Source: Octopus vulgaris
Lineage: Eukaryota
NCBI GenBank assembly: GCA_951406725.2
Contig: OX597833.1
Span: forward strand, 71,920,001 to 71,984,000
Direction of reading: 5' to 3'
Length of the DNA stretch: 64,000 nt
Shown one piece after another: positions 33,001 to 61,772 of this stretch; the stretch's first letter is position 1; every line of letters begins with the position of its first letter. The position numbers were made by a program, and so were the translations under genes. The notes beneath the pieces were generated by a model that had not been told where the DNA came from, ran no database searches, and was given only the letters and a program-made list of their open reading frames with translations.

Positions 33001-33204
33001 AGTATTGTCTTTTTTTTGTTTTAACGCTTGTGCAAAATTGGATTTGTTTTTGGTAGTAGTGTTGGTGGTAATGTTGGTGTCACTTGTAGTGGTTGAGGTT
33101 GTAGTAGTAGTGGTGTTGTTGTTGGCAGTTATGGTAGACGGCAAAACGACGATATCATTGCTGCTGCTGTTGCTGTTGCTGTTGTTGTTGTTGTTGGTGG
33201 TGGT

Positions 33205-34621: not shown

Positions 34622-34994
34622 TGACTAAATGTTTCGATGGTGCTGCCCCCAAAACGTTTACAGCAGTGTGTGTGTGTATTGATCGACAAGCGAACTTCTC
34701 ACCCACACAGCCTTACATATTGCAGTCCACATCTTTCTGTTTTGCTCTTCAGATTTGAACCGTTTATATTTTGGGGGTTATAATTTCTTTATTTGAAGGG
34801 ACTTAGGGAATTTTAGGAACTTCTTTAGCAGGAAGTTTTCAAATATGAAAGCATTCAAAATTTCGTAAATGGCGAGGGATCGATCGCAGTTGTTGGTGTT
34901 GCGGTTCCTTCGCTCGTGCGAACAACAACAGTAACAGCAGCAACAACAACGAACAGCCAAAGTCGAGGTTGTCAGGGGAATTGGTGCGTTGGTT

Positions 34995-35027
34995 GTTTCT
35001 AGGCAACGGATATCGTTGTTTAGTGAC
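34995..35027 (+). promoter_or_regulatory. RFX X-box plus forkhead (FOXJ1-type) site in the DRC12-A promoter
   Basis: GTTTCTAGGCAAC (34995-35007) then GTTGTTTAGTGAC (contains TGTTTA), ~130-160 bp upstream of the ATG; conserved in the paralog. Confidence 0.7.
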
Positions 35028-35152
35028 ACGGAAAAAGACCAGAGGAAGCTCAAAGCTTTTAATAGAATCTACAATCGTCTCTGAACACACATGAAATAGA
35101 GTATCACAACCACACTCAAACACATATATACACTCACACACCATAATTCAAA

Positions 35153-38100
35153 ATGTCTACTCAGAAGAAATCTACGAAAACTTCCAAAAAAACTAAGAAA
35201 AAAGACGGTTTGACATGATTTACTTTTATCTACGATTTTTAAAATATTGCCAGTTTGTTGTTGCTGTTGTTGGTATTATTGTTTCTGTTTAACACCAGGC
35301 CACCCCAGTCCTGTCTAACCCTTCTTTATCATGTGTAATTTTTAGGTATCATTTCTAAGACAGCAAGACATGATTTAAAGGGATTTGAGCTGTTATTTTA
35401 GCAGGCTCTCTGCTGGCCCGTGGCTCAAATTGTTCATGCTGTTGCTGTTGATGTTGTTGAACTCTAGGTATTATCTTGATCGAATAGCCAGGCGAGGGAT
35501 CAAAGGCATCCCAGCCACGACCTCTTGTCCCATGTACGCGGAACCCAGGATCACAGTATCCTATGGATTCTTTGGCAGGGTGTTAGAGTGTGATCTGACA
35601 GAGATTTAGGGGTTATTTCCTGAGGGGCAAACGTGCACATCGATGCCCAGTTTTAGCTCAGGGTTTGTCTTCACTTGGGTCAACCTTGCTATTGATACAC
35701 CAGTTATTTTCTATGTCTGTGCCTTTTTTTTATGTTTGTTTGGTTCGAGCAGGAAACAGAGTCGTCCTCTTTCGATGTTCCCGATCGACCGTCTAATGGT
35801 TGTTGTCGTTTTTGTAGGCATTCTGGAAAAGGATGAGAAATTTAGGAAATCACTGGTTGAACTGAATGCCATGAAAGATTACATTGGTAAGTATTGTTAC
35901 ACTTGTCCTCCAGTTTTGGGGGGGAAACTAAGAAATAGGGAGTTGAGCCTGTGGTATGTCTTTCATTCTCCCGGTCTCTCTTGCTTCCTCACACATTCAT
36001 ACTTTAGAGTAGTATTAAGGATATATAGAGAGCAAGACATGATTTAAAGGGATTTGAGCTGTTATTTTAGCAGGCTCTCTGTTGGCCCGTGGCTCATATT
36101 GTATATGAGTGGGAAACGTTGCTGGCTCCTTACGACATCCCTTTACAGTATTGGCAAGATTTTCATCGGGTCCAGGGACACGGAATTATTCCCTTCCAAC
36201 ATTCCTTCAGGACATTCCCAGGAATTTCATGAAATCCAACGGCTTTGGCAGGTTCGGTTTATTCTCTTCAGTATCGAAAGAAGAATTTGGTTGTTGCTCA
36301 CCACATTTCACGGGCAGCACTCGTGCTTCTCCAAATTCCTCATTATGAACACATCCCCCAACAAACACATTCTCTTGCAAATATTTATGGAGACTTTTCT
36401 CTCTCTCTTTGTCTAAATTCGTTTTAAATCTCCGTAACATCCATCCTTCCCCTCTTCTAACAATATGTCTCCTTGCTTTCACTCTGTTCCTCTTCCCCCA
36501 CTTCTCCCTTATAATCAAAGGGTCCCATCTAATGGAATCAATCCGTAATTAACCCCCTCCCCCCTTTATCCTCTCCCTTCTTTAATACTTAGCTTTCATT
36601 CTCTCTCCCTTTCTCTCTCTCTCTTTCACTCTCGCACATACCCTCTCTCCGCTTTCTCTCTCTCTCTCTCTCTTCCTTTATCATTACTTGTTGGCCACCA
36701 TCACTTTCCTTCTTTCCCATTTCTGCTTCTCCTCTCTCTCTCTCTTCAACCATAACACTACTCCTGCTGTTTCTATTCAATTTCCATACAATCAACACAT
36801 AGCCATCTTTTTTCTTTTCTCTTTTTCCCTCCCCTCTCTCTCTCTCCTTAGTTCCCCTCTCTCTCTTCCTAGTTCCCCCCTCTCTCCCTAGTTCCTCTCT
36901 CTCTTCTCACACTCAGTCACGTTGCTTCTATCCAATTTCCTTACCAACAACCATCATATAGCTGTCTGTCACTCCCTCTTTCATCTCTCACTCTTTCTCA
37001 TCTCTCTCTCTCTCTCTCTTTCCTCAATCACTCTTCCCTCACCTTATTTTCTATCCCTCGCTTGTTATCATTCTGGATTACCCCTTCACTTACTCCCCCC
37101 TCTCTCCCTCTCTCTCTTCCTCCCTGGCCCCTTTCCTATCAGTTGTGAGGAGGGAAAGAAAGGGGCAGACACAACAAAGAGAAGGGTTCTCTTAGTTTTG
37201 CTGAGGATGAAACAACCTTTCGTATTTACTGGGAGCTGAGTGAATGGGGGACAATATAGAATAGGGAGGATGTTCTAGTCTTCCTGGGGACAAAACAACC
37301 GCCCTTGCAGAGGGGCCGAGATAGAATACACCACAAGGAGGCTGGCAGGAACAGAGGTATCTAATCCAACAATGGCCACGTCAAAAAACATGGCAATATG
37401 CAAGTGTGATGTGGTCCCCATGGCAACTGACTTCAAATCATGCTGACACATCCAACCCATCTTAAACACCTGGGTACCTTACCTGTAAAATGGTGGTGGT
37501 GATGATTATGACGATGATGATGATGATGATGATGGTGTGTGTGTGTGTGTGTATATGAAATTTTTATGTAGGTCTATATGCATGTATGTATGTGTGTATG
37601 CATGTATGAATGTATGTATGTATGCATGTATGTATGTATGTATATGTTTGTGTGTATATATATATATACTTTATATCATAAAACTTGTAATTGCAGCTCA
37701 GCGTGATCTGATGCTGATGGAAAGTTTGGCAGCTGGCGAAGAACGGAACAAAGAACTGGATCTGTTAAAAATAGATTTTGAGTCACAGAAAGGTGATTAC
37801 AGGTCAATAAGAGCTGGTGAGTGTTGTTCTCGTTTTTTGTTGTAATGATGAGGATGGCGTTGGAGGAAGATGCTGAAGTGATTGTGACCTTCTTCTGCGA
37901 GGGAAGGTGGATGACTGTGGCAAAAATGGTTAAGGTGAATGGAGTTGCTCTAAATATGTAGTTGTGTATCAGAGAATAACAATGGGGCCAGGGTTTTGTG
38001 TTGTTGGGGTCTGGATGGCCCTGGATCTGTGGCTTTTTGTTGGCTTTCTGTTGTTTTTTGTTTTTTTTTGTTTATATTGGTTGTTTTAAACTGCAGAATT

Positions 38101-40655
38101 GGATAAGATGGCCATGTTCGTTTTGATATGTCTCCGTAGATATGACACGGCAGTACAAGACCATGGAGTCGGAGATGAATGCAAGGATACGTATTTTGGA
38201 AACTGAGTTGACAAGCTGTCGAATAAAGTTAAGTAAGTAGCCCCGGGCTGGGGTCTTTTTTTTTTGTATTGGTTTAGAGACAGAATTACTAAGCTGTATA
38301 GGATGGTTTGATTAATATGTTTAATTTAACAATAATGAAGGAATCCAAAGAAAAGGCAAAATTTGTATAGTTTCTCATTTTCAAATCATTTTCATGTTTT
38401 ATTGTTAAAAGCTTAAAATGGAACAGGACAGTTCCAAAATAAGAAACTAAGAGAATAACCTCAGAAAAACAAGATTTATGTTGTAGTTTGATTGTGCAAT
38501 CATAAAAGAGTAAAAGTCCTTAGAAAATAACAGAGAATTTCGTTTTGTAGCCGTTTCAGTCATTCGCATTATCAGATAATCAATAGTGTCTGATGTGATG
38601 CAGTTTTATCTCATTGAATTCAATTCATTTGACTGAAACCTCACAAGGTGGTGCCCCAGCATGGCCACAGTCCAATGACTGAAACAAGTAAAAAATAAGA
38701 GATTAACAAAAATGAAAACTAATCAGTGACACCCAACAACTAAGAATAAAATTTGTTGACTGAGGCCAACAAAAGGACAGCCGATCGATAAAAAGCTGTT
38801 GATTGTAAATCAGTGAATCTTTGATTTAGCAAATTAGTTGATAAAATGGAGAGTCAAATGGCAGAGAATGACACGGTTGGTGTATTTCACAGGTGATAAA
38901 GAATCAGAATTACTAAAGGCACAAAAAGAAGCCAAACTTCTTATGAACCAGAAACAGGAAGAAATTGTGCTTTTCCAGCGGAAGAACAATGCCATGGAGA
39001 ATTCCTACCAGGACATACTTCATGTAAGGGCTCACAACCATTTCCCTGATTTTTAATTCTCAGTTCATTATTTACATAACATGTTGCTATCATCATTATT
39101 GTTCGACCGTGGTCAAGACAATGGAATTTACTATGTTACGCCAGACTTCACGGTCCATCATAGCATTACGGAGGTCCTGTTGCTGGATGCCTGTATCCCT
39201 GGAGATTACATCAGGGTAGGAGAGTGTGCCTACCCATGTTGCTATATTTTCAGCCCCCAACTGATATTAACCTTCTAATAATAAATTAACTCCCATTTCT
39301 CAACATTTTGCAAACATTTGTCAGCACCCTGGGGAAAATGCTTAGCTGCAGTTGATAAAATAAGTACCAGTTGTGTCCGGGGGGTCAATGTTAATCACTT
39401 ACCCCCCCTCCCCCAAATTTGCTGGCCTTGTGCCAAAATTTAAAACCGATAATTTTCCTTGATATTTGTGTTCCTGAGCAGCCTGTTCTGTTGAGTGGAT
39501 CGACTGGAACACATGTAACTGGAAGCATACAGGTTTATTTAATTGTTAATTAATTAATAATTTAATTTTATTCAATTATTCGGGCATTGGAGCTCAATTG
39601 GTTGCAAACATGGGTGTTTGGTGAAGAATTTTGTTGTGCAATCATTTGATTTCAAATCTGGCAAGTGTCACTGGGGGAGGTGGAAATGTAGCCATTAGTC
39701 TGCTGGACGGACAGAACCTGTTGTCCGGTGATAGACTGAATCCGTTACCCAGTTTAAAAAGCCCACAGGATTCCTGGGCCCCTGTTGCAGAATTCACTCT
39801 TCTCTAATTCATTCACAGAAGCTCTTTCGTCTGAAGATAACTCAGCATCTTCCTCCTTTGCCAGAAGCCATGTAAGTGTGAGGCTTCTATGATTAATTCC
39901 ATTCACATCTATGATGTTTTATTGGAATGTTAAACCACCTCCAGCACATGACTGGTACTTTATCATATCAAACAGAGAAGAATGAAAGACAAAGTTGACC
40001 TGAGGATGCAAAAGCTAGGACTTAAATACCACAAGGCATTTAACTCTCACGATTCTACCATGTACTATCCTCCTCCTCCTCCTCATCATCATCATCGTTT
40101 AGCGTCCGTTTTCCATGCTAGCATGGGTTGGACAGTTCTACTGGGGTCTGTGAAGCCAGAAGGCTTCATCAGGCCCAGTCAAATCTGGCAGTGTTTCTAC
40201 GGCTGGATGCCTTTCCTAACGCCAACCACTCTGTGAGTGTAGTGGGTGCTTTTTACGTGCCACCCGCACAGGTGCCAGACAGAGCTGGCAAATGGCCACG
40301 AACGGATGGTGCTTTTTATGTGCCACCGGCACGAGGGCCAGGCGAGGCTGGCAATGAACACGAAACGGGGCGGTGCTGGCAACGGTCGCGAAACGGAAGG
40401 TTCTCCTACATGCCACCGGCACTGGTAACACATCTGCAATTTCCATTGATCGATTTCGATTCTGATCCTCCTCCATAAAATTCACATATTTATTTAAATG
40501 TCTTTTTATTTATTTATTTATTTCAGGGGGCTTTGGATAATCTTGTGTTCAAAATGGAGAAGTTAAAGGATCGATGGGAGAAACAAGCCAAAGTGATTCA
40601 GGCCAGAAATAAGAAAAAACTTCTTGAATTTGGCTTAAATCCTCTTGATTTGTAA
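35153..40655 (+). CDS. DRC12: Dynein regulatory complex protein 12 / CCDC153 homolog, copy A, 6 exons, 198 aa
   Basis: Exons 35153-35207, 35818-35886, 37697-37816, 38140-38232, 38893-39023 and 40527-40655 (597 nt, GT-AG, phases fit). Lys-rich N-terminus, coiled coil, DMTRQYKTM motif and C-terminal [11 protein letters not shown]. Confidence 0.82.
37414..37427. promoter_or_regulatory. Intronic X-box-like site (DRC12-A intron 2)
   Basis: GTCCCCATGGCAAC; the paralog has GTTGCCATGACAAC in its intron 2. Confidence 0.45.
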
Positions 40656-40757
40656 CATTTTGCCTCAAGATTTTCTGCTCCACAAGGTATGGCTTCACCT
40701 TTGTCTTCAGACAATTGTCTTCTCTTCGACAGGAAATGTTTAAAAAGGTTATTACAA

Positions 40758-40920
40758 GGCGCAGGAGTGGCTGTGTGGTAAGTAGCTTGCTAACCAACCA
40801 CATGGTTCTGGGTTCACTCCCACTGCGTGGCACCTTGGGCAAGTGTCTCCTGCTATAGCCCCGGGTCGACCAATGCCTTGTGAGTGGATTTGGTAGACGG
40901 AAACTGAAAGAAGCCTGTTG

Positions 40921-40973
<53 letters not shown>

Positions 40974-41185
40974 TTATGTGTCTGTGTTTGTCCCCCTAGC
41001 ATTGCTTGACAACCGATGCTGGTATGTTTACGTCCCCATCACTTAGCGGTTCGGCAAAAGAGACCGATAGAATAAGTACTGGGCTTACAAAGAATAAATC
41101 CCAGGGTTGAGTTGCTCGACTAAAGGCAGTGCTCCAGCATGGCCGCAGTCAAATGACTGAAACAAGTAAAAGAGTAAAGTGTAAA
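40758..41185 (+). mobile_element. tRNA-derived SINE inserted in the DRC12-A 3'UTR
   Basis: Interrupts AAAAAGGTTATTA|TAAGCAACCAAGG, which is uninterrupted in the paralog at ~52745-52772 (-). Confidence 0.85.
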
Positions 41186-43748
41186 AGAGAGATAAGCAAC
41201 CAAGGCTTTAATTAGGCCCCAAATCGATCCCCTCAATCTTTGTCCATGTAATACAGTGTTTCTGTCTGTCTCAAACTTGTTTGTATTTGAATTCCGCACT
41301 TGCAAGATTCCCTGCCAAATTCTTTCTTCTAAAAATATCAGAATATCTCTGGAATTGTCTGCTGCTTATATCAAAGTACCATCAACCATCACACAAGTCA
41401 TTGATTTGTGGTTGTTCAAGAAAAACATGACCCCCATTGATCTTGCAAGTATGAGAGGGTCTGCAAAGGACAAGAGCCCAGCCAACGCATTAAGAATATA
41501 AAGCAAACAACATCTGACTAGTCTCGGGGATTCCAACCCATTCCTTTTGACCAAACCCTTAAAATCAAAATGCAACTAAAACCTGAAATCATTTATTCAC
41601 TGATACAAAGATTAACATGCTTTTGACTCACGAGGAAAGAACCCTGTATCTGGAATATTTGCGGTTCTACAGGAAGAGAAAGATTTCAAAATTAAACAGT
41701 TTTTTTTTATTTAGAAATTATTTCTTGTCGAGTCTGACCGAAGGGACATTACCGCTGAACATTGCAGGTTCTCTGAGACTTGTGATGGGGTCATTTCTGT
41801 TCCATTTGTAATTCAACATATGCTAAAAAGACATGAACTGGGAGGAAGATTCCAGAGGGATGGCATTGTAGGGAGGAAGAAGGAATGGACATAATGGTGA
41901 GTGCATGGGGGTGGATGGGTGTGAGACGGATTGGGTGCACCTGGGTGACAAGTAGGCGGGGTGGGGGAGACCAGTGTGTGGAGGGTGCATGAATATTGGT
42001 GGTAAGAGGCCGAGACCAACCAGCTCACAGTTCAGAGGTCATTATAGTAGTAGTAGTAGTAGCAAAGGTAGAGAGTGGACACAGCAGCACCCAGTTTTGG
42101 GTTCACGTCTGTTAGTGATTGATTTTCAACCAGTGGGATGTTGATGTTTCGCTCCACGCCAGCCTTGGGCTCAATTCTATTCATCTCTCGCCTTTTTTCC
42201 CCCTCATCTTCTTTTTATATCGGCCAGTCATGAAGAGTTATGTCCCTTCGTTTGGTCTTTTGAATGGAGTCACGAGATTTGGATTTTCATCTCCCAAAAC
42301 TATTAAAACTCCATTAATATAACAAATAAAAGTATTCTTTAAAATAAAAATTCCAAATATCAAAGCGAAATTAAAACAATAATTAAGCAATTTACTTCAG
42401 TTTGAATGAATAAAAATATTTGCACAATAAAAGTAAAGTAATTTGTTTTATTTTGCCTCTGTTGGTTAACGACCTCCATTCTCGTTGATGCATGAAAAAT
42501 TATGAAAGATTCAGATTACAAAAGAAAAATTATACAAAGAGCGGAAATGTGGGCGAGTGGGGGGTGAGTGTATTAGGAGCATTAGGCAAAAAGGAACTTT
42601 ATAAGGTTGTGTGAATTAAAAGCTTATAATAATGAAATTATTGTATACAGTTCTCAGGTGCACCACAACTTGTCAGAGTATATTAAAAGCTTTTAATAAA
42701 TAACTCTAAAAGGAAAACGGATCACAAGTAATGCAAGTTGTTATTTTAAAAAGTAGATGCATTAGGATTTCCCATCCACTCAAGGGACACACTGGTTAGG
42801 TCAGGTTAGAGTCCCCTGATGTCTCTGTCCACTTGCCATTGTTCAGATTAGAGACTGATATACCCAGAGATGAAGGTGCCTCTCCATATTCTCTTCATGG
42901 AAGGCTGACTCATTGGCACACGGGGCAAAACGCTGAATGCAGCATTTTGTCTGTCTCAATCTTCTGAGTTCAAATTCTGCTTCCATCCTTTCAGGGTTGA
43001 TAAAATAAGTACCAGTTATGCACTGGAGTCAATGTAATCAAGTTACCCCCCGCTCCCCGTACTTGCTGGCCTTGTGCCAAAATTTGAAGCCAATGTTTGT
43101 CTTCATGAAACAAATGAGAAATTTTCCCCCTCCTCTTGGTACTTCCCTTGGCATTCCTACTTCAGTCTCTGGTTATTCGATAATATTCCCTTTATCAAAA
43201 GTCTTTTACTTTCATGCTGCAAATATTTTGCCCGTTTTGCCCATTTTTTTCCTCCTCAGCAATCAAGACATGGAAACAGCCTCCGCCCCATCATGTCTCC
43301 CTTATTCTGTTTATCCCCTGCTTTTCCTTTGCCGACTCACTTCTCTTTCATCTTGCTCGTCTCCATAACAACTGCACTCAACACGTTTTTAGAGTAATTC
43401 TTTTTGTCAATTTCGTTGTGTCCAGGGACGGTCATTCTTCCAATAACACATGCGCTGGTTCAATTCCTCTCCTTTAGTATTAGTCAATTGGTTAACTCTT
43501 CACTAACTAATCGATCGTTTGTTTAACTTGGTTGACCAATTAGTCTACTTTTTTGTCAAAGCTCTTTATATCAAATATCATTTATTTTTAGTTTTATACA
43601 ATTTAAGTATAATTTTTTTATATCACATATATATATGTATTCATTAAGTATCGTTTTTATATAAAATATATACCATTTACCATATCAATTATATATCATT
43701 TATAACGTATATCATTCCCACTTTGTTAATAAAATATTTCTTTGTCCT

Positions 43749-43939
43749 TTAATTAAATGGCAGAGAATGGAAGAGTGGAGTTGGCCTCACCATCATCAGA
43801 TAACAAGCAACAATGATGGCACTTCTTGTCCGTCCAGCTTTACAATGGACATAAACACACTGACCAAGTTGTTGATAATAGCTGATGAAAGCCAGGGCTT
43901 GATTGACCTGCCACTCAATGAAATATTCAACTTCCATTC
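43749..43939 (-). pseudogene. Inverted partial PTPMT1 copy (catalytic exon 3 only)
   Basis: Near-identical to ~50308-50490 ([37 protein letters not shown], donor and intron start). Acceptor AG lost; ~31-nt and 12-nt deletions. I found no copies of exons 1, 2 or the coding part of exon 4. Confidence 0.85.
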
Positions 43940-44233: not shown

Positions 44234-44280
<47 letters not shown>

Positions 44281-47133: not shown

Positions 47134-47408
47134 ATGGATCAATTTTCTGCCATTGGAACATCAATCCTCAGCAAAGTTGCCTTTTATCCGTCCCTTTTCT
47201 ACAATTATGCCTTGTATTTAGCTTCCTTTCGTCACTGGTATGTTCGTATAGACAGCTCAATCATCTTTGGTGCCTTACCATTTCGGCAAATGGCCACAGA
47301 GGTAAGATTTATGTACATGTATATATGTGTGTGTGTGTGTATGCATGCATATATGTGTATGTATGTATGTGTGCATGTATGAATGTATGTATGCATGTAT
47401 GTATGTTG

Positions 47409-47441
<33 letters not shown>

Positions 47442-50400
47442 ATCAAAATAAGCAACAAGGATATCCAGAGGTAATGCATTACCTGTGGATATCCTTGTTG
47501 CTTATTTTAATTCTAATCACCTTATTTTGAAATTGTATCGATAATACCGTACTAAATTCTGGTGCCTTAACTTAAGTACCATATTCATCTGAATCTAAAT
47601 TTTTACTGAACTCATATATATATATATGGCTATGCTTGAGTACGTATGGTACTAATATCTGTCTGCATTTTCTCTGTGGAATGGTCAACTTTGCAGTAAT
47701 TCCTTCCCAAATCAGACCGGGGGGTCAACCTGATCCCCCCACCCCACTCACAACTGCTTCATCTCCTCCTCCATCCAGGTTACACTGGACTGATGATGAC
47801 ATCTCAACATGGCTGAGCTCCGTTATGGGGACGGAATTGGTCGAAATGAGATTGCGAATGGGGAAGTAGTTTTATTTATGGCTTTGGCCCACGAGAAGAG
47901 GATTTTCAATGGACCTCTTCAGTTTTATGAAATGGTCGGTAAATTCCACAAAGTGCCCCAAATGTGGCTGTGTGGTAAGAAGCTGGCTTGCTGCCCACAT
48001 CGTTCTGGGTTCAATCCCACAGCATTACACCTTGTGAAAGTGTTTGTGTGTGTCTGCGTTTGTCTCACACCACAGTTTGACAACTGGTATTGGTGTGTTT
48101 ATATCCCTGTGACTTAGCGGTTTGGCAAAAGAGATCAACAGAATAGGTACCAGGCTTAAAAAGAACAAAAAAAAAAAGGAGGTCCTGGGGTTAATTCATT
48201 CAACTGAAATACTTCAAGGAGGTGCTCCAGCATGGCCACAGTCTAATGACTGAAACAAGTAAAAGGCGAAAGATAAAAGGTTGTATAAATGCATAAATGT
48301 GGCCTTCAGTCAAATGGGTCTATCAGACATCAAACGCCAACAGAACTAAACAAGGAAAGATTTATTGAGTAATATAGTTCTCAAAGGATGGCTATGGTTG
48401 GATTGTGTTTGATCATAGGTCTGTTCAATCAAGGTTGATTGGATGTTAGGGGACAACAACAACAGCAACATCTTAAGACTTCAGCCTCTTGTGGTGTCAT
48501 CACAGTGAAAAGTCTCATTTGATTCAATGACAGCCTCTTCGTTAATTAACTTTTAATGAAAATTCTGATTGAGTTAATTGAATTTTTCTTTTCTCTTTTC
48601 ATTCCAGTTGGTGGAAAAGGAAAACGTCAGAGGTGTTCTCTCAGCCAATGAAAATTTTGAAACAAAGCATTTTACACCATCAAAAGAGGTAGAATCCATC
48701 TCGGTGTTATAAAGACATCATCACCACCTCCACCACCATCATCATCATCGTTTAACATCCGTTTCCAATGCTGACATGGGTTGGGTGGTCTGACAGAGCT
48801 GCACCAGGTTCCAATCGTCTGGTCTGGCACAGTTTCTGTGGTTGGATGTCCTTCCTTATACCAACCACTTTATAGAATGTACAAAGGGTGCTTTTTCTGT
48901 GGTGACAGCATGGGAAAGTATCTATCATTATATAACGATATATCAGTATGTAAATCAATCAATCAATCAATCCATCTATCCATCCATCAATCCATCCATC
49001 AATCCGTCCGTCCATCCATCCATCCATCCATCCACAGGGTGCATAAGATATTTGAGGACAGGTTTATGTTTATAACAAAAAAACAGATATAATAACAGAT
49101 AATAACTTTATTTATCAAAAACTGCTATGAGGATAAAAATAAACCTTCTTTTCTATAATGTTATTCAATAAAGCCATCTTCAGCTCCAACAACTGCTTCT
49201 ATATGAGATCTAAATCATTTACATGCTTGAATCAAGTGGTCCTGGTTCATTTTGGACATTACTCAGACTATGGCAGCTCTCAAAGAAACTTTGGTTTCTA
49301 TAATGTTATTCAATAAAGCCATCTTCAGCTCCAACAACTGCTTCTATATGAGATCTAAATCAGTTCGATGGATTGAGATCTGGGGAATTAGGAGGCCAAA
49401 TGTTAGGGGTTATGTGATTTCCAGCCATTCATTTCTGTGTTACTAGAGTCATGTGTGATAGTGCAGAGTCTTACTGAAACACATATGGCCCTCCATTGCA
49501 TACACTGTCTATCTAGGGCTTGATTGTTTTCAGGAGGATCTCAATGTAGGCAGCAGAGTTAACTCTAAGGCTCACATAGATATATATCTTAACAGACCTG
49601 TTGACATGAAAAAGAGGCATCTATCTCCATGTAGAAAGTATTTACAAACACATAAATATATATCTAATATATGAAGCAGACCTGTAGACATTGGGAAATT
49701 TTTACAGAAATGAACCTGAACATACAGCTAGAGAAATAGAAAGCTGGAGAAGAATATAAAAAAATGAAAGTACCTTTAGAAATTCTTTTTATTAGAAACC
49801 ATCACAATTGTAATGATGTATACATACGTGTGTGCGTGTGTGATTGTGTGTGTAAATAGTCGGTTATTTAGTTACTACGTCAGAACACCAGACACAGGAA
49901 GTTGACATTGGCAAAACAGCTGAAATGAATCTTTCTGTTATATATAAAGCAATATTATTTATTTCCAATGTCAAATTGTTCACGTACCCCAAGTATGGTA
50001 CAGATTGATCCAGAGGTTTGGCCATGCACAGACAACACACACACACAGGCACCGCATTTTACATAGTAAGATAATGTATATTTTTAGTTGGTGCATTCTA
50101 CAATTAGAAAATAACTATAAAATGCAATTATAGAGAATAATTTTATTAACGCTTTTTCTCTCTCTCTTTCTTCCTCTCTCTTTCCTTCTCTTTCACCCTC
50201 CTTTATATATATATATATATATATGTTTCTTTCTAAGGAATGGAAGGATCTTGGTGTTGGTTTCCTTCAAGTGGAAGTTGAAGATTTCATTGGGACACCC
50301 AGCTTGTGGCAGGTCACTCAAGCCCTGGCTTTCATCAGCTATTATCAACAACTTGGTCAGTGTGTTTATGTCCATTGTAAAGCCGGGCGGACAAGAAGTG

Positions 50401-51016
50401 CCATCATTGTTGCTTGTTATCTGATGATGGTGAGGCCAACTCTACTCTTCCATTCTCTGCCATTTAATTAAAGGACAAAGGAATATTTTATTAAAAAAGT
50501 GTGAATATTTCATCTCATGCACGAAATAGAAATGTTTTATGAAACAATTTATAAATGATTCAATTAATGAAATACAAGATATTTAAATGTTATTAATGCT
50601 ATATAATATATATTTTATAATTGATATATAAATACTATACACATGATACAATATATTGTTATAAGAATTACATAAATATTTGGGATAGTAAAGGATGCAT
50701 GTGAAAAAGGCCTTGTAAATGCCATAGAATTTGGATGACATATAAATTATATATATATTATATACATATACACATACATATATAAACAAATGTATATGAG
50801 CATATCTATCTAAATGTCCTTCTGTGTGTGTGTGTGTGTGTTACGAATAATATATAAGTGACGTATGAATTCTGAAAATGCTTTGTAATATATAATATAA
50901 ATGATATAAGTATTACGGAGTTTATAATATACAAACGATATTACACTCTGACACGTGATATTAATGATAAATGAATTAACCAACAGATAAAGTAACCCTT
51001 ATAACTATAATCAAAC

Positions 51017-51068
<52 letters not shown>

Positions 51069-51416
51069 CCTGCAAGCTAATGAAATCCTTGTTTTGATTA
51101 GATTAACGAGAGCTGTACCTAAGACACGCTACCTAGTTACAACTAGTTATACTGATCCAACAAGAGTTAAATGTCTTGACCAAGGTTATTGTTGTGTTGC
51201 CAGTCCAATTCCTAACCAATGTCCTCTCTGTTTGGCTCCCTTTTTTTCATACCAAACATGTCTACGTATTTACAGAAGAACCAGTGGGATGACACGACCG
51301 CATGGAACCACATCCTCTCCAGATGCACCCATGTGCGACTGACCCAGCAACAGCAACAATTCCTTCACTTCTTCTACTTAACTGAGACCAGTATGCAGAA
51401 ACTAAGAACCAGATGA
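47134..51416 (+). CDS. PTPMT1: Mitochondrial phosphatidylglycerophosphatase / dual-specificity phosphatase PTPMT1, 4 coding exons, 193 aa
   Basis: Exons 47134-47301, 48608-48688, 50238-50429 and 51276-51416 (582 nt, all phase 0). Motifs [36 protein letters not shown] and P-loop [13 protein letters not shown]. An acceptor at ~47081 implies an upstream 5'UTR exon. AATAAA at ~51908. Confidence 0.92.
47445..47508. repeat. Near-perfect 64-bp palindrome beside (TA)n in PTPMT1 intron
   Basis: AAAATAAGCAACAAGGATATCCAGAGGTAATG|CATTACCTGTGGATATCCTTGTTGCTTATTTT, one mismatch. Confidence 0.9.
49034..49570 (-). mobile_element. Tc1/mariner transposase remnant with an internal ~67-bp direct duplication
   Basis: Minus strand reads [10 protein letters not shown] at ~49368-49398. 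ACAGGGTG TIR-like end at ~49034. Segment 49151-49217 is repeated at ~49296-49362. Confidence 0.65.
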
Positions 51417-52856
51417 TTCCCAACTCAGACAAGCTTCAACCTCCATTCAGTTTACAAGAAATAGCGACTCAACATATATTTATCGGCTGAAATCAATCCA
51501 ATATGAACTCTTCTGAAACCTTGGGTGTCCCTCCACAACAACTTATATTAAACTCACTTTAACAATTTGATCTCAACATACGGCTTTAGCTCAACGTACG
51601 ACAGCCACAATGCATCATAGAATGACTTCAACCCACAAGAACTACTTTAACTCAACATACAACAGCCTCAACCCAATATATAAAACAATCTCATCTTAAT
51701 TAATATGATCTCACTCCCCAGTTATTCTATAACGAACTCAACCCTTTTCATGAGCTCCCTTCAAAGTAAGATGGCCAGCACTCGGCCCAGCCTTCGTCTA
51801 TCAGCTGCCATTGTGTAAATTGTTGAATTATTCAAACTGAAGTAAATTGTTTAATGTTTACTTTGATTGTTGGTATTTTTATTTGGAAATATTTCTCTGT
51901 TTGTTGTAATAAAGGTTTCCAGTTTGGCACAAGGCCAGCATGTTCGGGTGGGAGAGGGGTAAGCCGATCGCATCACCCCCACCCCACATGCTCTGCTGGG
52001 GCATATTTTAGGTTTGTTGTAACAAGGGACTTTAAAAGCTAACTGATTAAAAGGGACAATTTTGTGATTGCATTAGTTATATTATCGAGCAAGGGACGTA
52101 ACTCAAATGTGAACGGTGAACCAACCTGGTCCAAGATTTTTTTTGACACATTTACTCTCTAACCACCCAAACAAAAGAAATAGGGCTCCTCACGGCAGTC
52201 AAAGGAACGTATTTATCAAATTATACTGTTACAGCCAGACTTGTTTTTATTCTTATTTAACCCCGAGATCAGTCCTGATCGAGGAGATTTGTGATTCAAA
52301 GCATTTAAGTTATTTTAAGGCATTGTCTATCTTGGACAACATTAAGCATTTTTGGTACAGTAGTGTGATACGATGGAGATTTGGCTTCTATTTTCAGCAG
52401 TCCAGGTGCTCATGGAGACATTTTCTTGTCTGGAAAAAAGCGGATTGCGGGGGTTTCGGAACAAGGGACATAACTCTAGCCGAGTGGCTATGCCTACTTT
52501 GTGAGGACAGTTCTCTGTATAGTAAAAAAGACCCTTTTGGGGTCAATAATCCCTTGTATCTGGTGTCTCTAAACCAATGGGAGAGAAAAAGAGAGTCCCT
52601 ATGTGACTTCTGATTCTGCTGGAAATAGCAGTCAATCACACCTTCCTATATTAAATAATGACACTGTAGGGGATGTTGTACATGAAGACCTTAGCTCTAA
52701 CCTACAAACAAACTCGTGACCCCACTAAAGCGTGCCTAATTAAAGCCTTGGTTGCTTATAATAACCTTTTTAAACATTTCCTGTCGAAGAGAAGACAATT
52801 GTCTGAAGACAAAGGTGAAGCCATACCTTGTGGAGCAAAAATCTTGAGGCAAAATA

Positions 52857-53911
52857 TTACAAATCGAGTGGATTTAAGCCAAATTCAAGAAGTAGTTTCT
52901 TATTTCTGGCCTGAATCATTACACCGTGTCCTTCGAAATGATCTCTTCCTGTATTGATTTGCACCACAAGGTTATCGAAAACTTGCTGGAATAAACAAAT
53001 AAAGAAATGTTTTTCATTTAAGGCGTAATAATAACAATAATAATAATAATAATAATCATAATAATAATAATGATCCTTTCTATGATAAAAGCAAAGCCTT
53101 AAATTTTTTTTGCAGGGGTGGGGTGAGTAGGTGGTTAGACAATTACATCGACCCCAGTACTCAACTAATGCTTATTTCAATGACCCTGGAAGGGCGAAAG
53201 GCAGAATTTGAACTCAGTGTAAAGACATGAAATGCCACTAAGTATTTTGTCTGGCATGCTAACGATTCTGCCAACTTGCTATCTTAATAATGATGATGAT
53301 AATATTGATAATAATAAAAATAATTTATTGTAACTATGAATATTTACTGTGACATAACCTTTTCAATCCAAACTTTAAAAAACTTTCTAGATAGAAATCT
53401 CAAATACAACCTCAGTTCAATCCGAACAGTAAAACCAAATGTATTATCTATAAACAGAAACACCAACCTTACACATAAAGAATATTCTGACCTGAATATG
53501 ACACATCTATTTACTCCTTTACTTCTTTACTTGACTGAAGCCAAAACAACAATACTATTCCTGTGTCATACCAAAATAAATCTCCTCACCATACATTTGT
53601 ATTATGTCATACCTACAAACACATATTTGCTTCTTATCCTTCTCTGTTCCACCTTCTTCCTCTACAACTATTTCCCCTGTTTACTTTCACTATACATATT
53701 AAAAAAAACCCCACCAAACACTGTATAAAGCCAGAAAGAACCACATTGAATCACCCCCTGATGAAGCCAAAACTTTGAAGTCAGTCAACCTTTCCCTTGA
53801 GCAACTCTGTTGAACAATACTGAGTTATCTGTCAGTATAATGTTAGATTGTTTCTATAAATAACATTAAATTAAACAATAATATACATAAATGTGTGTGA
53901 GTAATATATAC

Positions 53912-53954
<43 letters not shown>

Positions 53955-56199
53955 TACATATATACATGTGTGTGTGTGCATAGCAATGTATGTACACACA
54001 CACACACACACCAGCAATAGTCTTCTTTCTGTTTCTATCCAACAAATTCACTAACAAAGCTTTGGTTACTGAAGTAGAAGACCTTTATGCCAAAGACACT
54101 TGACCAAGGCACCACGCAGCTTGATTGAACCCCAAACCTCTAAAACCATGTGGTTGAGGAACAAATGTCTTAATCATGTGGCTAATGTGTGTGTATGTGT
54201 GTGTGTGTGTGTGTGTTGGCAGAGATTTTAAAATAGTAAACAGAATGTCTTGTAGAATTGGTTCCAGCTCTTGGCACTCAAAGTTCAAACAGTGCTGGGC
54301 TTAGTTTCGCATTTCGTCCCTCAGGGGACGCAGTAATGAACTAATCCAGGACTATTCTTCTCTCTTTCTCTTTCTCTTTTGAAAAACTCAGCCATGGTAA
54401 TATTTGGTCCCCATTCCTTTCAATACCAAACTCCACCCATCACTGTCCACGGTTCTATGAGACAAACTTTCTGTTTTTAGAATGATCGAAATTTAAATCT
54501 TACTTCAAAATTTCATGTGAATTCAGGTTCCAAACACCAGCCTAATAACGAGAAAGTTCTTTTACTAAATTCTTCCACATATTCAAATCAATAGAAATAA
54601 AGATGGTCGAGAGAACGTGGGTAACGAAAGGTTTGAAATGTCCAAGAGGTGCCATGTGCCATGATGGTGCCCCAACTGACTTGAAGAGAAGATCTCAACT
54701 GATATGAAGGAACATAACCTTTCCAAAAACATTAACAAAGGAGACTGTATGTGTTAGATAAAGCTTTAAGAAATAACAGCCAAATTTACTCAAATCACAC
54801 TTTACTGCCTCTGGGAAAAGACTACATTGGATAATTTTAATTTGAATGTATTATTTGTGGAAAAGACAGGATAATTATGGTTGGAATACTTCTAACCAAC
54901 AATTTTTTCAAATGCTTTTCTTTCCTTTTTCTCTACCAGAATAAATGGGATGACTTTTATTGGAGAAATTGTTTTGTTGTCTTCTTTCCAAATTGCATGG
55001 CCTCCATATTGTTAATGACTCAACAAAAAAGTGGGAAAAGATAAAAATTGATAAAAATTCAAATAAAAATGTAATTTTGGTAGAGAATTGTATGAAGTTG
55101 AATGAGATGTGTTCCAGGATGTCTGCCCAAACATTACGAAACTCTTTTAAGAATACATTGATATTTAATGAAGGACATACAACCATGAAATCCATTCTTT
55201 GACCCAGAGAAGATTTTTGGGGGCAGCTTTATGTGAAAAGAATATTGAGAAATAGGGACTTAATGTTGGTATAACACTGAGTAGAAACTGATTGTTTAAT
55301 TTGAAGAGAAAATTGAAGATAAGAAACAGTTTAATGTTAGTAAAATATTAAAAAATAAGAGTTAGTTTATTATTAGAAAAATCCCGAGAAACAAATGGTA
55401 AAATTAATGACGACAGAAGAATATGACAGGGGTCAGGTTAATGTTAGTTGGGGGCTGAAAATATAGCAGCATGTTAATTAAAAAAGGAAACTGAGAATCA
55501 AGGATCAGGCACATGAGCCCTTACATGAATTATTTTTTCATAGAAACTCTGAATTGAATTTTGCTTGTGGTGAAGAAGATCGATTTCTTTCTGTTTTTCT
55601 TTAAGATGTTGCATCGTTTCTGCTCGTGTACTCAACAGCTTTGCTTCTGTTTCACCTGCGAAAAACAGTCTTCAATTTTGAATTTTACTGTTACTTCGTT
55701 TTATCAATTATTTGTTTGTCTGTCTGTCTGTCTGTCTGTTTGCCTGCCAGCTTGCCTGTCTGTCCGTCTGTCCCTCTGTCCATCTCTCTGGCTGGCCGGC
55801 ATTTTCTCTGTCCGTCTGTTCGATTTACCAACAAACTGTTTGTCACTTGATTTCTAAAACTCTGGCCAAAAGAACCTGAATCTTCCAGACTTTTATTAAC
55901 TTTCATTTGTCTTTTCTGTGTCTGTGACCGTCCACGATTTAGTGGCTCAGTGGTCAGTGTGTTGCACTCGCAATTGCAAGGTTCTGGGTTTGATTCCCAG
56001 ACCAGACAGAGTGTTGTGTTCATTTCATGTTGCTCCAATCCATCCAGCTATGATGGACTGGAGTTCCATTCCTGGGGGATGTTGGCCTGTTTGTCTGCCT
56101 TATCAGCTGCAGGACATCATTCAAAAGCTACAACAATATGTGGAAGTGCATTGTGAGTAGTGGTGTATAACAACATCTGATAGTCTGGCAATTACAGCG

Positions 56200-56233
<34 letters not shown>

Positions 56234-56637
56234 ATACACACACATATAAATATGTATATACATATGTCATAGGCAGAGAAGTGGCTGTGTGGTAAGAAAC
56301 TTGCTTCCCAACCACATGGTTCTGGGTTCAGTTCCACTGCATGGCACCTTGGACATGCAGTGGGCATGCTGACCAAAGCCATGTCAGTGGATTTGGTAGA
56401 CAGAAGCTGAGAAAAGCCTGTCGTGTATATATATATCATCATCATGCAAATTCGTGAAGCGTTCCATATTTTTTGGGCGCAGGAGTGGCTGTGTGGTAAG
56501 TAACTTGCTTACCAACCACATGGTTCCAGGTTCAGTCTCACTGCGTGGAACCTTGGGCAAGTGTCTTCTACTATAGCCTTGGGCCGACCAAAGCCTTGTG
56601 AGTGGATTTGGTAGATGGAAACTGAAAGAAACCCGTC

Positions 56638-56673
<36 letters not shown>

Positions 56674-58532
56674 GTATGTGTGTGTGTATATGTTTGTGTT
56701 TCTGTGTTTGTTCCCCCAACATTGCTTGACAACCGATGCTGGTGTGTTTACATCCCCATAACTTAGTGGTTCGGCAAAACTGACTGATAGAATAAGTACT
56801 AGGCTTACAAAGAATAAGTCCTGGGGTTGATTTGCTCGACTAAAGGCGGTGCTCCAGCATGGCCACAGTCAAATGACTGAAACAAGTAAAAGAGCAAAGG
56901 AATAAAAGAACATATACATACATATATCCTCATCATCATCATCGTTTAACATCTGCCTTTCATGCTGTGTGTATAGAAACACTAGCTTAATACAAACGAA
57001 ATAATTTTACTAAATTTTTCATTGTTTTTGAAATTAATTCAAAGTCTGTATCAAGAGAAATATGGCAACAAAAGTTAACCATTTGAAGAAGCCAATCAAT
57101 TCTGTTTCAGAAAACCAAAACAAAACTAAATTCAACCTAGGAATACTTACGTAACTTTTGCTTACAACAAGCCAGTTTGGTTTCCAGAAGGTGTACCTTC
57201 ACACTCATTTCTGATTCCATTGTCTTGTACTGTCGTTTCATTTCTAGGAAGAGATATCAGACCAAATACATTAAAGCTAGGCACCTGTTATCGGGAATGT
57301 TGTCAGAATGCAATCCCTGTTCTCTGTTGGTCGATCAACGAGGTCAGGGCTTTGTGGATTATTACATTCTTAAGTGGATTAACAGGGAATGTGAGTAGTA
57401 ACATAATCAAAGACGTTTTAGGAATTAATAAAGATCGAATGAACAGAATACTCCAGAAGCTGTTCACTCTGAAGACTTTGCACAGTTCTAGAAACATCTG
57501 ACCTGAAAGCGCTACCAGGAAGTATTACTGTTTCAGGATAAACTCCAGAGGTGTAAAAGTGCCATTAGTTTGGCATGTCCAAGACATGCTCAAACTGATG
57601 AAGTCAAATGGGAAAAAATTACATATAAGCAAGCAAAAACAGACATTTATACCAGACAGAAAAGAGAAATGATGATTTCACAAACACAACTAACAATGAA
57701 GACTGCAGCAAAGGCACAAAATTTGCTAAAGTTGTTAATGAAACAGAAATTCTTTTGAATATAAGTCATCTCTAACAAATAACAGATTGTGGCATTGGGG
57801 TCTGTTGACAGAGCAAAGAGAAAAAGGGACATACATCTACGTATCAAAAAGAATAAGGATTTTCAACAGATCCTCAAAGGAGACATCAAAAGAAATGAAT
57901 GAAATATTGTGGGGCTTCTCTGACCAAGGGTGTACAATTTTTTAAGTGATTTATAAAACCATCAAATCTCAGAGAATGAGTCTGTAAGAGAAGAAAATGA
58001 AGTGAAGAACATCGGAAGCAAGAAACCAAAATAAAAGGTGACCCCTATTTGTAGAGAAGCAATTACTATTTCAACATTCTCCTATGTCACCACCCTGATC
58101 CCTAAATACATACAATTGACTCCAAACAATAGAATAATGAAGAGACAACACTTACCCTCTGAAACTGACTTGTAATCCCCTTTCTGTGTCTCCAGTTCGG
58201 CCCTCAACATGTTCAGCCGTTTGTGACAGTCTGACCTGTTTGCCACACTCTTTACAAGCAGCGAATGGCGTTGGGCTGGAATTCAACAAATTTACTGGGT
58301 TTAATTCGCATCATATACATGTGGGTGTGTAGGTGTGGGTGTCCCCTTTTGTGTATATATATACGCAGGAGTGGCTGTGTGGTAAGTAGCTTGCTAACCA
58401 ACCACATGGTTCCGGGTTCAGTCCCACTGCATGGCATCTTGGGCAAGTGTCTTCTGCTATAGCCTTGGGCCGACTAATGCCTTGTGAGTGGATTTGGTAG
58501 ACGGAAACTGAAAGAAGCCTGTCGTATATATG

Positions 58533-58563
<31 letters not shown>

Positions 58564-58964
58564 CTGTGTTTGTCCCCCTAGCATTGCTTGACAACTGATG
58601 CTGGTGTGTTTATGTCGCCATCACTTAGTGGTTTGGCAAAAGAGACCGATAGAATAAGTACTGGGCTTACAAAGAATAAGTCCAGGGGTCGATTTGCTCG
58701 ACTAAAGGCGGTGCTCCAGCATGGCCGCAGTCAAATGACTGAAACAAGTAACAGAGTAAAAGAACAAAAGAGTATATATATATATATTTCACAAATCACC
58801 ATTTGAGTAAAACAGTGATGGAGATGTTCACATTGGTGGTTGCCATGACAACTGGTTGCTTGGTTCTTTTAAAGAAGTGACGGAATAAAAAAGAAACAAA
58901 ACAAATATCTCTCATTCTCAAAAACTGGAGAAAGATGGTGAAAGGAAGGGAGTGGAAAGAGGTA

Positions 58965-59004
<40 letters not shown>

Positions 59005-59877
59005 TTGAAAGTGTGTATACACATGCACACACACACACACACACTCTCCATTTCCAACTTTTACCAAAGTATAAATGTTAAAATTCTTACCAAGATATTC
59101 TTTCAAATTATTCAGTTCCACAATTGAGTTCTGGAATTTCTCCTCCTTTTGTCTGTCTTCATAAGCTTGCATGTCTAGTACTACAACAACAACAATAAAA
59201 CCAACCATAATATTTTTCATTGTGAAAACTGGGAAAAAAAGAGAAAAATCTGGATTTCTCTTTTTTAAACCATTAGTGCAAGGACAATGAGACTTAAACC
59301 AGCAAATCCCCTAATCCCAGGGAATGTCCTAAGGGGATCTCTTTTTTTAAGGGCTGCCTAATTGGGGCCACACTGACTCCACTATTTTTACTGCTAAATA
59401 CATGGCACTGGCGACCAAGTCGGAGCAATGACAATGAATTTCATACCACAAACTCCCAGGGAGTATCTTAAGGGGGCTCAATTTCTGAAGGGCCGCTTAA
59501 TTGGGGGCCACACTGACCCCCACCCTCTATTTTTACTGCATTTGCCTCGCCCCTACGCTTATTGATCAGCATCATTTTTTAACACATTTGCAGAAATAAG
59601 TTCAGCCATTCTAAATTTCTTCCCCTACATTCAAATGGAGATAAAGGGTTCTAACAGGTACGTTTCAAGTGTGGTAGGGTGGATGTTTATATTTTGGAGT
59701 TTATGAAACTTATGTCTAAGATATATATATATATATACACACACATATGCGTATATATGCTTTCCAACCTCATGCTTCCGGGTTCAGTTCCACAGTGTGT
59801 CACTTTGGGTGTTTTCTACCATAACTGAGTAAAGCCTTGCAAATGGATTTGGTAAATAGAAACTGAAAGAAGCCTGT

Positions 59878-59922
<45 letters not shown>

Positions 59923-60701
59923 AATTAATAACTAAAACATATGCATATATACATACATATATGTACGTACCTACCTCTGCATGTATATATACATGCATAT
60001 ATGGGTACAGGACACCAAAAAAACGTCAAACACAATGAGAAACGAAAACATAAACACAAAACCAAGGAACTGGACATGTATATAAATGTATATGTATGTA
60101 TATGTATATAAATGTATATGTATGTGTGTGTGTGTGTATTCACTTGTCACTTATGGATGAGGAAAGGAGTACTCAATCCATGTGCAAAAGTATGTTGGTT
60201 TTTAATACTCATCCCCTTCGTCACGAGACGAAATCAACTGCTGGAATAAAAGCCACGATGCTGTAATGGGAACAACGCCAAAGCAAGAACACCAGAAAGC
60301 AACCAACAGAAGAAGCAAGAGACGGGGGCGGGGGACAGGCAGACACTGATCGGTGAGAAAGAAGAGGCGTTTGTCTTGCTCGAAATAGCAGCCAAATCTC
60401 CCTCAAATTTCGGTCAATAGTTTTAAAACTAGAAGGTCTCTCTGAATAATGTAATCCTAGATACACTTATGCGTGAGGGTATGATGGGATTGTTATTATT
60501 TACTCCCAGATCCGCTAAAAAGGGCTGACCTGGAAACAACAACGACAACAACAAGGGCAATGAAAACATCAGCAACAACAACAACACGAAGACGACGACG
60601 ACAATAGCAACATAATGTAACGTCAAAAAATAAAATGGAGTCAAACCATTTTTTTTGCTAGGTTTTTTGGCCATTTTTGGAGCTTTCTTCTTGGTCGACA
60701 T
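52857..60701 (-). CDS. DRC12: Dynein regulatory complex protein 12 / CCDC153 homolog, copy B, 6 exons, 203 aa
   Basis: Minus-strand exons 60701-60647, 59174-59091, 58275-58156, 57243-57151, 55655-55525 and 52985-52857 (612 nt). Same exon sizes as copy A except exon 2 (+15 nt). [13 protein letters not shown] and [11 protein letters not shown]; no in-frame stops. Confidence 0.82.
53340..53860 (+). mobile_element. Degenerate Penelope-like element 3' end
   Basis: [17 protein letters not shown] resembles the LxTxxPxGLN tail of PLE GIY-YIG domains. A CTGATGA remnant sits at ~53758, next to (TA)n. Confidence 0.4.
58839..58852. promoter_or_regulatory. Intronic RFX X-box (DRC12-B intron 2)
   Basis: GTTGCCATGACAAC, one mismatch from the GTTGCCATGGCAAC palindrome. 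Confidence 0.55.
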
Positions 60702-60800: not shown

Positions 60801-60918
60801 ATGAGTGTGTGCGTGTGTGTGTGTGTGTGTGTGTGATACTCTATTTCATGTGTGTTCGTTCAGAGACTGTTTTGTAGATTCTATTAAAAGCTTTGAGCTT
60901 CCTCTGGTCTTTTTCCGT

Positions 60919-60951
60919 GTCACTAAACAACGATGACCGTTGCCTAGCAAC
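60919..60951 (-). promoter_or_regulatory. RFX X-box plus forkhead site in the DRC12-B promoter
   Basis: GTTGCCTAGCAAC (60939-60951) and GTCACTAAACAAC (60919-60931). Confidence 0.72.
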
Positions 60952-61772
60952 GACCAACGCACCAATTCCCCTGACAACCTCGACTTTGGCTGTTACTGTT
61001 GTTGTTGTTTTTATTTTTATTGTTGGAAGCAACGAAGGGAACATCAAGGAACCGAGGCAAGGAATAGAGAGGAACCCATCGCCCTCATTCAACTCTTGAT
61101 CCCTTCCATCGAGGAAGTCCAGAAAGTAAAAACCCCACAAGGGGGTAAAAGATAAGGGAGTCCCTTGAAGACGGCGACGGAGTCAGAAGACGAACCCGGA
61201 AAGCATTTTAGCAAGTGAAGGTAGACAGGTGCATTGTATGCTGTACACCTTGAGCGGGTAGACACCACAAACAGGGTTACCTACTACCACCACCACCACC
61301 ACCACCGCCACCACTGCTACTGCTCAGTCCATTGCATATACAAGTACGCACGGTCCCCACCCTCCCCTATACACGGCTCGCAGCTCCTCGCTCACCATTC
61401 CACACAAACTACACCTCTTCGTCCTCATTAATCTCCTTTAATTCCTGTTTCAACGAATTCAACGTTTTTTCATACAAGTTTCCTTGTCTAATCAAGACTT
61501 TACCACTTTTTGCTAAAAAATTTATACGACCCACCCCCACCCCCCACCCACGCAAGATACTCGTTTACGCTGTAAGACATTGGTTACGTAACCATAGCTA
61601 CCATAAAACATCTTCTCTCCCACCACCGTATCCTTTCAAACTCAAAATTTTGATAAATTAAAATTTTGTGAGTTCTCTCCCTTAATTCTTTTAAGAGTAA
61701 TTTTCATTAGCTCGGCCTCCTTAGCATGGATCTACGATCTAGAAGGGTTTAAACTGGCTTTGCTTACGTTTC

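Follow-up and report, generated by a model that had tools for sequence, protein, structure and literature searches.

Three short islands of high identity suggest patchy gene conversion between the inverted arms of an old DRC12 duplication in Octopus vulgaris

Palindromic amplicons of sex chromosomes consist of inverted arms that are near-identical over their full length, are separated by a short spacer and undergo arm-to-arm gene conversion. Neighbouring paralogs outside such structures can also exchange sequence. In primates, SIGLEC11 and SIGLEC16 are opposite-oriented neighbours whose converted region takes in upstream sequence, with an identity of 96.9-99.3% inside the region and lower identity outside it (excerpts of PMC5701461). 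Long-lived mosaic conversion has been described for the pairs BMP8A/B, DDX19A/B and TUBG1/2, and the authors speculate that regions engaged in homo- or heterodimer binding are kept alike (passages of PMC2720389). In the flip/flop region of yeast chromosome XIV, inverted repeats bearing duplicated genes are homogenised by conversion in the course of non-allelic recombination, and crossovers between them invert the enclosed interval (sections of PMC9731477). The locus described here carries two genes for DRC12, a dimeric N-DRC (nexin-dynein regulatory complex) subunit that is co-expressed with DRC1 and DRC2 and has been modelled as a homodimer in Tetrahymena (parts of PMC10504270). Among the papers listed in a literature search that covered few subscription journals, none dealt with this locus and none joined octopus with CCDC153 or DRC12.

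Here, we compare the two arms of an inverted duplication within the window, by which we mean the whole 64-kb stretch of O. vulgaris DNA analysed. The order of elements is DRC12-A (plus strand), an orphan exon 3 of PTPMT1 (minus strand), a spacer of ~6 kb, PTPMT1 (plus strand) and DRC12-B (minus strand). Inverted matches are collinear from 34907/61038 inward to 43936/50272, with six exon pairs in line. The genes are as follows:

35153..40655, plus strand: DRC12-A gene, 198 aa, six exons, GT-AG introns, open frame
35153-35207, 35818-35886, 37697-37816, 38140-38232, 38893-39023 and 40527-40655, plus strand: exons of DRC12-A
52857..60701, minus strand: DRC12-B gene, 205 aa, six exons, GT-AG introns, open frame
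60647-60701, 59091-59180, 58156-58275, 57151-57243, 55525-55655 and 52857-52985, minus strand: exons of DRC12-B
47134..51416, plus strand: intact PTPMT1-like phosphatase gene, 193 aa, open frame, GT-AG introns
47134-47301, 48608-48688, 50238-50429 and 51276-51416, plus strand: exons of PTPMT1

The sequence-only reading had named the paired genes DRC12, and this identification holds. Fifty-eight homologs of full-length similarity were found, many of them named CCDC153 or DRC12, and the family profile matches PDB 8th8_S with an E value of 7.7e-21; a Pfam search with the DRC12-A protein gave no match. This protein (P0001) is annotated in O. vulgaris and in O. sinensis. The DRC12-B protein is that of O. 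sinensis P0066 save for one residue, at which it agrees with O. vulgaris P0065. Three open reading frames near the DRC12 promoters, candidates for head-to-head partner genes, had no Pfam match. Homology between the arms upstream of 34880/61066 is at shuffle level in 300 and 1000 nt, and a comparison over 2500 nt scored 65 against a shuffle maximum of 44, probably on account of a repeat.

The window holds other elements besides. A Pif1-type helicase fragment, probably Helitron-derived, lies at 32996-33667 (+), ~1.3 kb upstream of the A promoter. Reverse-transcriptase fragments at 62250-62654 (+) and 4239-4571 (-) are probably LINE elements, and an open frame of 216 codons at 5762-6409 (-) encodes two CARD domains (E 2.9e-25). 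Local inverted repeats that are short and nearly perfect occur at 19774-20149, 12652-12864, 8343-8691 and 8814-8948, the first three being 93-95% identical with spacers of 1-89 nt; these are possibly MITE-like foldback elements.

The body of the two DRC12 genes has diverged extensively. Their proteins are identical at 93 of 198 residues (47%), and the coding sequence before a C-terminal tract is identical at 341 of 537 nt (64%), with a pS of 0.60, a dS of 1.21, a dN of 0.39 and a dN/dS of ~0.3. Ten 120-nt intron flanks show 50-73% identity between A and B, and because five of the ten exceed shuffled sequence at z>3, the introns can be regarded as homologous but eroded. The earlier statement that adjacent introns barely align needs correcting for the start of intron 5, where two patches stand out:

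39235..39318, plus strand: intron-5 patch of middling identity with 55333-55473 (minus strand), 92% over 39 nt and 83% over 46 nt

Identity is intermediate across the start of this intron as a whole, 39020-39318 (+) against 55333-55530 (-), and both copies contain AATAAA; the segment possibly represents conversion of an earlier date, or else a polyadenylation site conserved within the intron. Intron 5 of A also has an extra insertion of ~150 bp flanked by 11-bp direct repeats. One annotated isoform of O. sinensis B stops just past exon 5.

Both paralogs are present in O. bimaculoides. In a tree of residues 1-178 of 43 proteins, which was flagged for long branches that join and for unusual composition of the B sequences, A and B form an octopus clade (100/99) beside the Sepia type, and A and B each group with their O. 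bimaculoides orthologs (100/98 and 100/99). The duplication thus predates the split of O. vulgaris from O. bimaculoides, which is put at ~34 Mya in a portion of 10.1101/2023.05.16.540928. That the duplication as a whole is young and its proteins have evolved fast is ruled out by the dS and dN/dS values, the eroded introns and this ortholog grouping. The octopus branches are long relative to most mollusc branches in the tree (a stem of 0.75, then 0.6 and 0.8), which suggests faster DRC12 evolution around the duplication. Bulinus truncatus has two DRC12-like proteins, P0030 and P0031, with close locus numbers, perhaps an independent local duplication.

Three islands stand out from these eroded arms. 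At three places, each a patch of 160-230 bp with sharp edges, identity in sliding windows of 50 columns climbs to 0.88-1.0 over a level of about 0.5-0.8, and the arms outside these patches are only ~50-80% identical. The islands carry 6 mismatches in 155 columns, 6 in 184 and 9 in 223 (homogeneity p 0.99, on near-identical counts), a pooled divergence of 21/562 or 3.7%, with 95% intervals per island of about 1-8%. Among 2621 anchored columns, the longest identical runs (97, 66, 63, 55, 42, 39 and 37) all fall within the three islands; in 2000 permutations, made on segments picked by hand and with gap columns left out, the longest run averaged 25 and reached at most 53. The GC content of the islands (0.42, 0.35 and 0.39) is not raised over that of the arm (0.405), which weighs against conversion, although raised GC in tracts is a supporting sign and no requirement. 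Even divergence in all three islands, against a pS of 0.60 elsewhere, counts for gene conversion. We consider it probable that the islands, each ~96% identical, reflect patchy gene conversion from arm to arm, which short patches held similar by selection would have seeded.

Island 1 lies upstream of both DRC12 genes, and its label as promoter and 5'UTR follows from its position relative to the ATG:

34952..35107, plus strand: copy A of island 1; promoter/5'UTR block of DRC12-A, with 45 nt between its end and the ATG
60834..60994, minus strand: copy B of island 1; promoter/5'UTR block of DRC12-B, separated from the ATG by 132 nt that include a CA/TA microsatellite

A non-coding match of ~155 bp with few differences had been claimed at this place, and the alignment agrees: 149 of 155 aligned columns are identical, with two small gaps and mismatches at copy A positions 34994, 34998, 35010, 35011, 35075 and 35076. 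The two longest identical runs measure 61 and 42 nt. If the best intron is taken as background (27% mismatch), the binomial probability of six or fewer mismatches is 3e-14. The block, at 96%, is also far more alike than the synonymous sites and intron flanks given above. The four codon pairs cited in the same reading as differing (CGG/CGA, ACC/ACA, GAG/GAA and TCG/TCA) are all there, and five of the ten codons of the ten-residue motif to which they belong differ. That the block is more alike than the coding exons is correct for the body of the protein but fails at the end of exon 6, whose final 19 codons are identical at 53 of 57 nt.

A dispersed repeat that happens to lie beside both genes, or an assembly artefact, might produce such a match, the more so as the window is rich in SINEs and in other repeats that give inverted matches. 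Within the 64-kb window, however, island 1 occurs exactly twice, at mirrored places upstream of both ATGs and collinear with the six exon pairs; its copies differ at six sites and two gaps, and a separate O. sinensis annotation also contains the coding part of island 2. We regard this explanation as highly improbable. In metagenome contigs, a 26-nt motif of island 1 had no match, and the DRC12 protein alignment detected 26 loci (best segments 35-70% identical), among which the islands had only one match, of 15 nt with an E value of 0.06.

Each copy of island 1 contains two 13-nt matches to a restricted consensus for the X-box bound by RFX factors:

34995..35007, minus strand: predicted X-box match 1, copy A, fitting GYTRYY-N-RRHRAC
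35015..35027, plus strand: predicted X-box match 2, copy A, same consensus
60939..60951, minus strand: predicted X-box match 1, copy B, fitting the consensus on both strands
60919..60931, minus strand: predicted X-box match 2, copy B, fitting the consensus

The consensus, GYTRYY N1-3 RRHRAC within 1 kb of the ATG, was taken from PMC2375033 and searched with a spacer of one base only; parts of the same source state that a match to the loose consensus does not by itself predict regulation. The window as a whole has 10 matches against 2.8 expected, and four of its seven distinct sites are in the two blocks. Two matches per copy fit a ciliary gene. Island 1 therefore likely has a regulatory role, which perhaps aids its retention, and RFX-type control common to two divergent DRC12 proteins would be a likely effect of their similar promoters. 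Further two-strand matches occur at 7318-7330 and at 23298-23310, the latter near the start of a 405-codon open frame (23250-24464, plus strand) that has no convincing Pfam match and is possibly a further ciliary gene.

These motifs bear on the main alternative to conversion, namely that constraint alone has held the promoter, the 3'UTR and an enhancer in PTPMT1 exon 3 in both arms since the duplication, for co-regulation of DRC12 and with no copying. The enrichment of X-box matches in the blocks favours it, as does the dimeric nature of DRC12 and its co-expression with other subunits, introduced above. The motifs, however, occupy only 26 of the 155 columns and are kept no better than the rest of the block: one of 26 X-box columns is mismatched compared with 5 of 129 elsewhere, which argues against constraint alone. 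Moreover, constraint alone would require 86-94% of island sites to have stayed fixed over a time in which synonymous sites became saturated. The cis-regulatory option of the earlier reading is supported as to a likely function and is the less likely account of the identity. Conservation for RNA structure was rejected, since there is no Rfam match in 33000-63000 and the three UTR and intron parts show no unusual fold (z 0.36, 0.13 and 0.62). The whole island 1 block folds with a z of -1.98, its two X-boxes pairing with each other. Overall, we hold constraint without copying to be unlikely, and two further islands add to the case for conversion.

Island 2 starts abruptly inside exon 6 and comprises the last 19 codons and ~120 nt of 3'UTR, interrupted in copy A by a SINE:

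40595..40758, plus strand: island 2 copy A, left part, with the last 19 codons, the stop and ~100 nt of 3'UTR, 157/163 identical, one gap
40759..41191, plus strand: SINE of ~430 bp inside island 2, in copy A only, with an empty site in B
41197..41217, plus strand: island 2 copy A, right of the SINE, 21/21 identical
52734..52917, minus strand: island 2 copy B, exon 6 end and 3'UTR, unbroken

The SINE is flanked by 5-bp target-site copies, at 40754-40758 and 41192-41196, with a single base difference between them. Relative to three other copies in the window, it has private substitutions at 9 of 346 columns, or 2.6% per lineage. A SINE tolerated within the island speaks against constraint, and its private divergence fits an island age near 4% pairwise. 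The 3'UTR has 2 mismatches in ~120 columns across both sides of the SINE. This identity, close to 99%, is a point in favour of constraint; it hints at real constraint or at more conversion after the SINE inserted.

The coding part of island 2 is conserved in general, a point against conversion, with Sepia matching at 14-15 of 19 residues in the tract compared with 41-44 of 97 before it. Synonymous differences are fewer in the tract than in the rest (2/18 versus 25/71), a contrast that is not significant (p 0.08). We compared four proteins over 116 columns: O. vulgaris A, O. sinensis B (standing for the window's B) and O. bimaculoides A and B. The 29 sites that group orthologs all lie in residues 83-179, and there are none in 180-198; the one site that groups species, residue 183, lies in the tract (Fisher p 0.033). 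This residue is R in A and B of the vulgaris/sinensis lineage and K in both O. bimaculoides paralogs and in Sepia. Grouping by species is the sign of conversion that the sequence-only reading had called for. As the single informative residue of the tract, it stands against constraint; it is labile, however (33 K and 14 R among 67 motif-matching homologs, out of 211 proteins), so that parallel change is possible and the grouping is weak evidence. Paralogs within a lineage are identical at 18/19 and 17/19 residues of the tract and orthologs at 16/19 and 17/19.

Island 3 acts as a control within the locus. It consists of a catalytic exon of PTPMT1, with part of the adjoining intron, and a damaged copy of both in the other arm:

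43714..43936, minus strand: island 3 copy A, orphan PTPMT1 exon 3 with 77 nt of donor-side intron, 214/223 identical, one gap
50272..50506, plus strand: copy B of island 3, comprising catalytic exon 3 of the intact PTPMT1 gene and the beginning of the following intron
42311..42428, minus strand: eroded homolog of 51810-51915 (3' of PTPMT1), 71% identical

The central gene has its HCxxGR loop in an intact frame, and the best match of its exon 3 is PTPMT1 in PDB 3rgo (E 8.6e-16); its exons 1 and 2 are situated in the unduplicated spacer. In the orphan exon, the native acceptor and the 34 nt that should follow it are missing; it has also lost 12 nt to a deletion and carries a D-to-Y change at the column aligned with the conserved D of 3rgo, which we take to be the general acid in catalysis. 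Despite this damage, no more than 2 of its 41 codons show a synonymous difference, and the intron part is identical at 73 of 77 columns. Protein constraint cannot account for a damaged exon and its intron remaining nearly unchanged, a result that counts for conversion and makes constraint unlikely; the 12-nt deletion that island 3 took is a further point against the latter. An enhancer in exon 3 would, on the other hand, explain why this exon alone survives in arm A. A second complete PTPMT1 gene in that arm is ruled out: no remnants of exons 1, 2 or 4 were detected on the minus strand of 41200-47000, where these exons score at shuffle level (exon 2 reached 23 against a shuffle value of 22 in one 250-nt window, taken as noise). 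The eroded homolog at 42311..42428 places island 3 within the old duplicated arm. That island 3 persisted when the copy of exon 4 did not weighs against conversion.

The sequence-only reading had set gene conversion, as in palindromic amplicons, beside cis-regulatory constraint. Conversion is the option favoured here, on the strength of two other, equally diverged islands, one of them in a damaged exon with its intron, and of one protein site that groups by species; the comparison with palindromic amplicons went too far. For the promoter block itself, we infer conversion by extension from islands 2 and 3. In the mechanism that we propose, purifying selection would keep short seeds alike, namely the X-box promoter core, the conserved C-terminus and the catalytic exon in the intact PTPMT1. 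Even once most of the arm sequence was too diverged to pair, such seeds could still have done so between the inverted arms when breaks were repaired; tracts of ~150-250 bp, copied in this way, would have carried identity into nearby neutral sites while the remainder escaped. The last homogenisation would have occurred roughly 4% divergence ago, with the SINE, the 12-nt deletion and scattered substitutions arriving later. A rough hand scaling (ortholog path of 0.25 against paralog path of 1.65, multiplied by the dS of 1.21) gives a neutral divergence between O. vulgaris and O. bimaculoides near 18%; 3.7% would then correspond to ~7 My, after the species split, a figure that is only indicative and assumes a constant dN/dS.

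Copying might instead have happened once, in a single recent episode or as separate small templated insertions ~4% divergence ago, with no exchange since. Equal divergence in all three islands is what this would produce, and the SINE and deletion have been left unrepaired. The island counts are small, however, given the breadth of their intervals, and the likeness of the O. bimaculoides paralogs in the tract (17/19) suggests exchange in that lineage too. We view a one-off event as very unlikely, and as a variant of conversion in timing rather than another mechanism.

A more far-reaching version of patchy conversion would treat the islands as regulatory bookends: conversion of the promoter, the C-terminal tip and the 3'UTR would be recurrent and selectively favoured since it would co-express the two 47%-identical proteins as an octopus-specific A:B heterodimer which, in motile axonemes, had taken the place of an ancestral homodimer, and the islands would double as crossover sites that flip intervals of 26 kb and 12 kb and swap the outer flanks of the genes. 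We consider this version doubtful. As to patchy conversion in general, DRC12 is modelled as a homodimer, and if A were to pair with B, there would be cause for the two copies to remain co-expressed. A predicted complex of A and B scored 0.53 against 0.00 for the best control, runs agreeing on at least 95% of contacts and partner pLDDT being at least 81; of 78 solved pairs 51 pass the mark for this score, as do 2 of the 108 mismatched ones, and at 0.60 or below the passes are only 5 solved pairs and all 4 false ones. The prediction lends weak support to A:B, which it does not tell apart from A:A, and the pass may derive from a like complex that has already been solved.

If confirmed, patchy conversion at this locus would be a clean natural case in which conversion, long after the divergence of two paralogs, is confined to short patches; the damaged exon, renewed from its functional counterpart, would supply a neutral control from within the locus. 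The case has a bearing on how duplicated genes may specialise in protein yet stay co-regulated, and it warns that high non-coding identity between paralogs does not necessarily imply function.

On the conversion reading, the locus is an unusually clear new example of an already well-known process. It shares inverted arms and a spacer with palindromic amplicons but is not one itself, since its arms are not near-identical throughout (flanks 50-73%, exons 64%). Both octopus proteins belong by sequence to the DRC12/CCDC153 family; in contrast to the homodimer modelled in Tetrahymena (parts of PMC10504270), octopus has two 47%-identical paralogs, and the Sepia cluster has one type. Like the flip/flop region of yeast, it has inverted repeats ~25 kb apart that carry duplicated genes; the yeast repeats, however, are 4 kb long and near-identical throughout, with inversion polymorphism demonstrated (sections of PMC9731477), whereas in octopus short patches are alike and one haplotype is represented. 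With SIGLEC11/SIGLEC16 it has in common opposite-oriented neighbouring paralogs, converted upstream sequence and the involvement of a non-functional copy. The primate pair is head-to-head, 9 kb apart, with a single tract of ~2 kb on an 88-93% background in several species (excerpts of PMC5701461), in contrast to three tracts of 160-230 bp on a near-saturated background between tail-to-tail octopus genes, leaving out the protein body, in DNA of one species. BMP8A/B, DDX19A/B and TUBG1/2 are likewise two-copy families of old duplication with mosaic identity, in which identity of introns excludes protein constraint; according to PMC2720389, their coding segments are homogenised while upstream regulatory regions have diverged. 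The octopus pattern is the opposite of the mammalian cases compared, in that promoter and 3'UTR, the control regions, are alike and the body of the protein is divergent.
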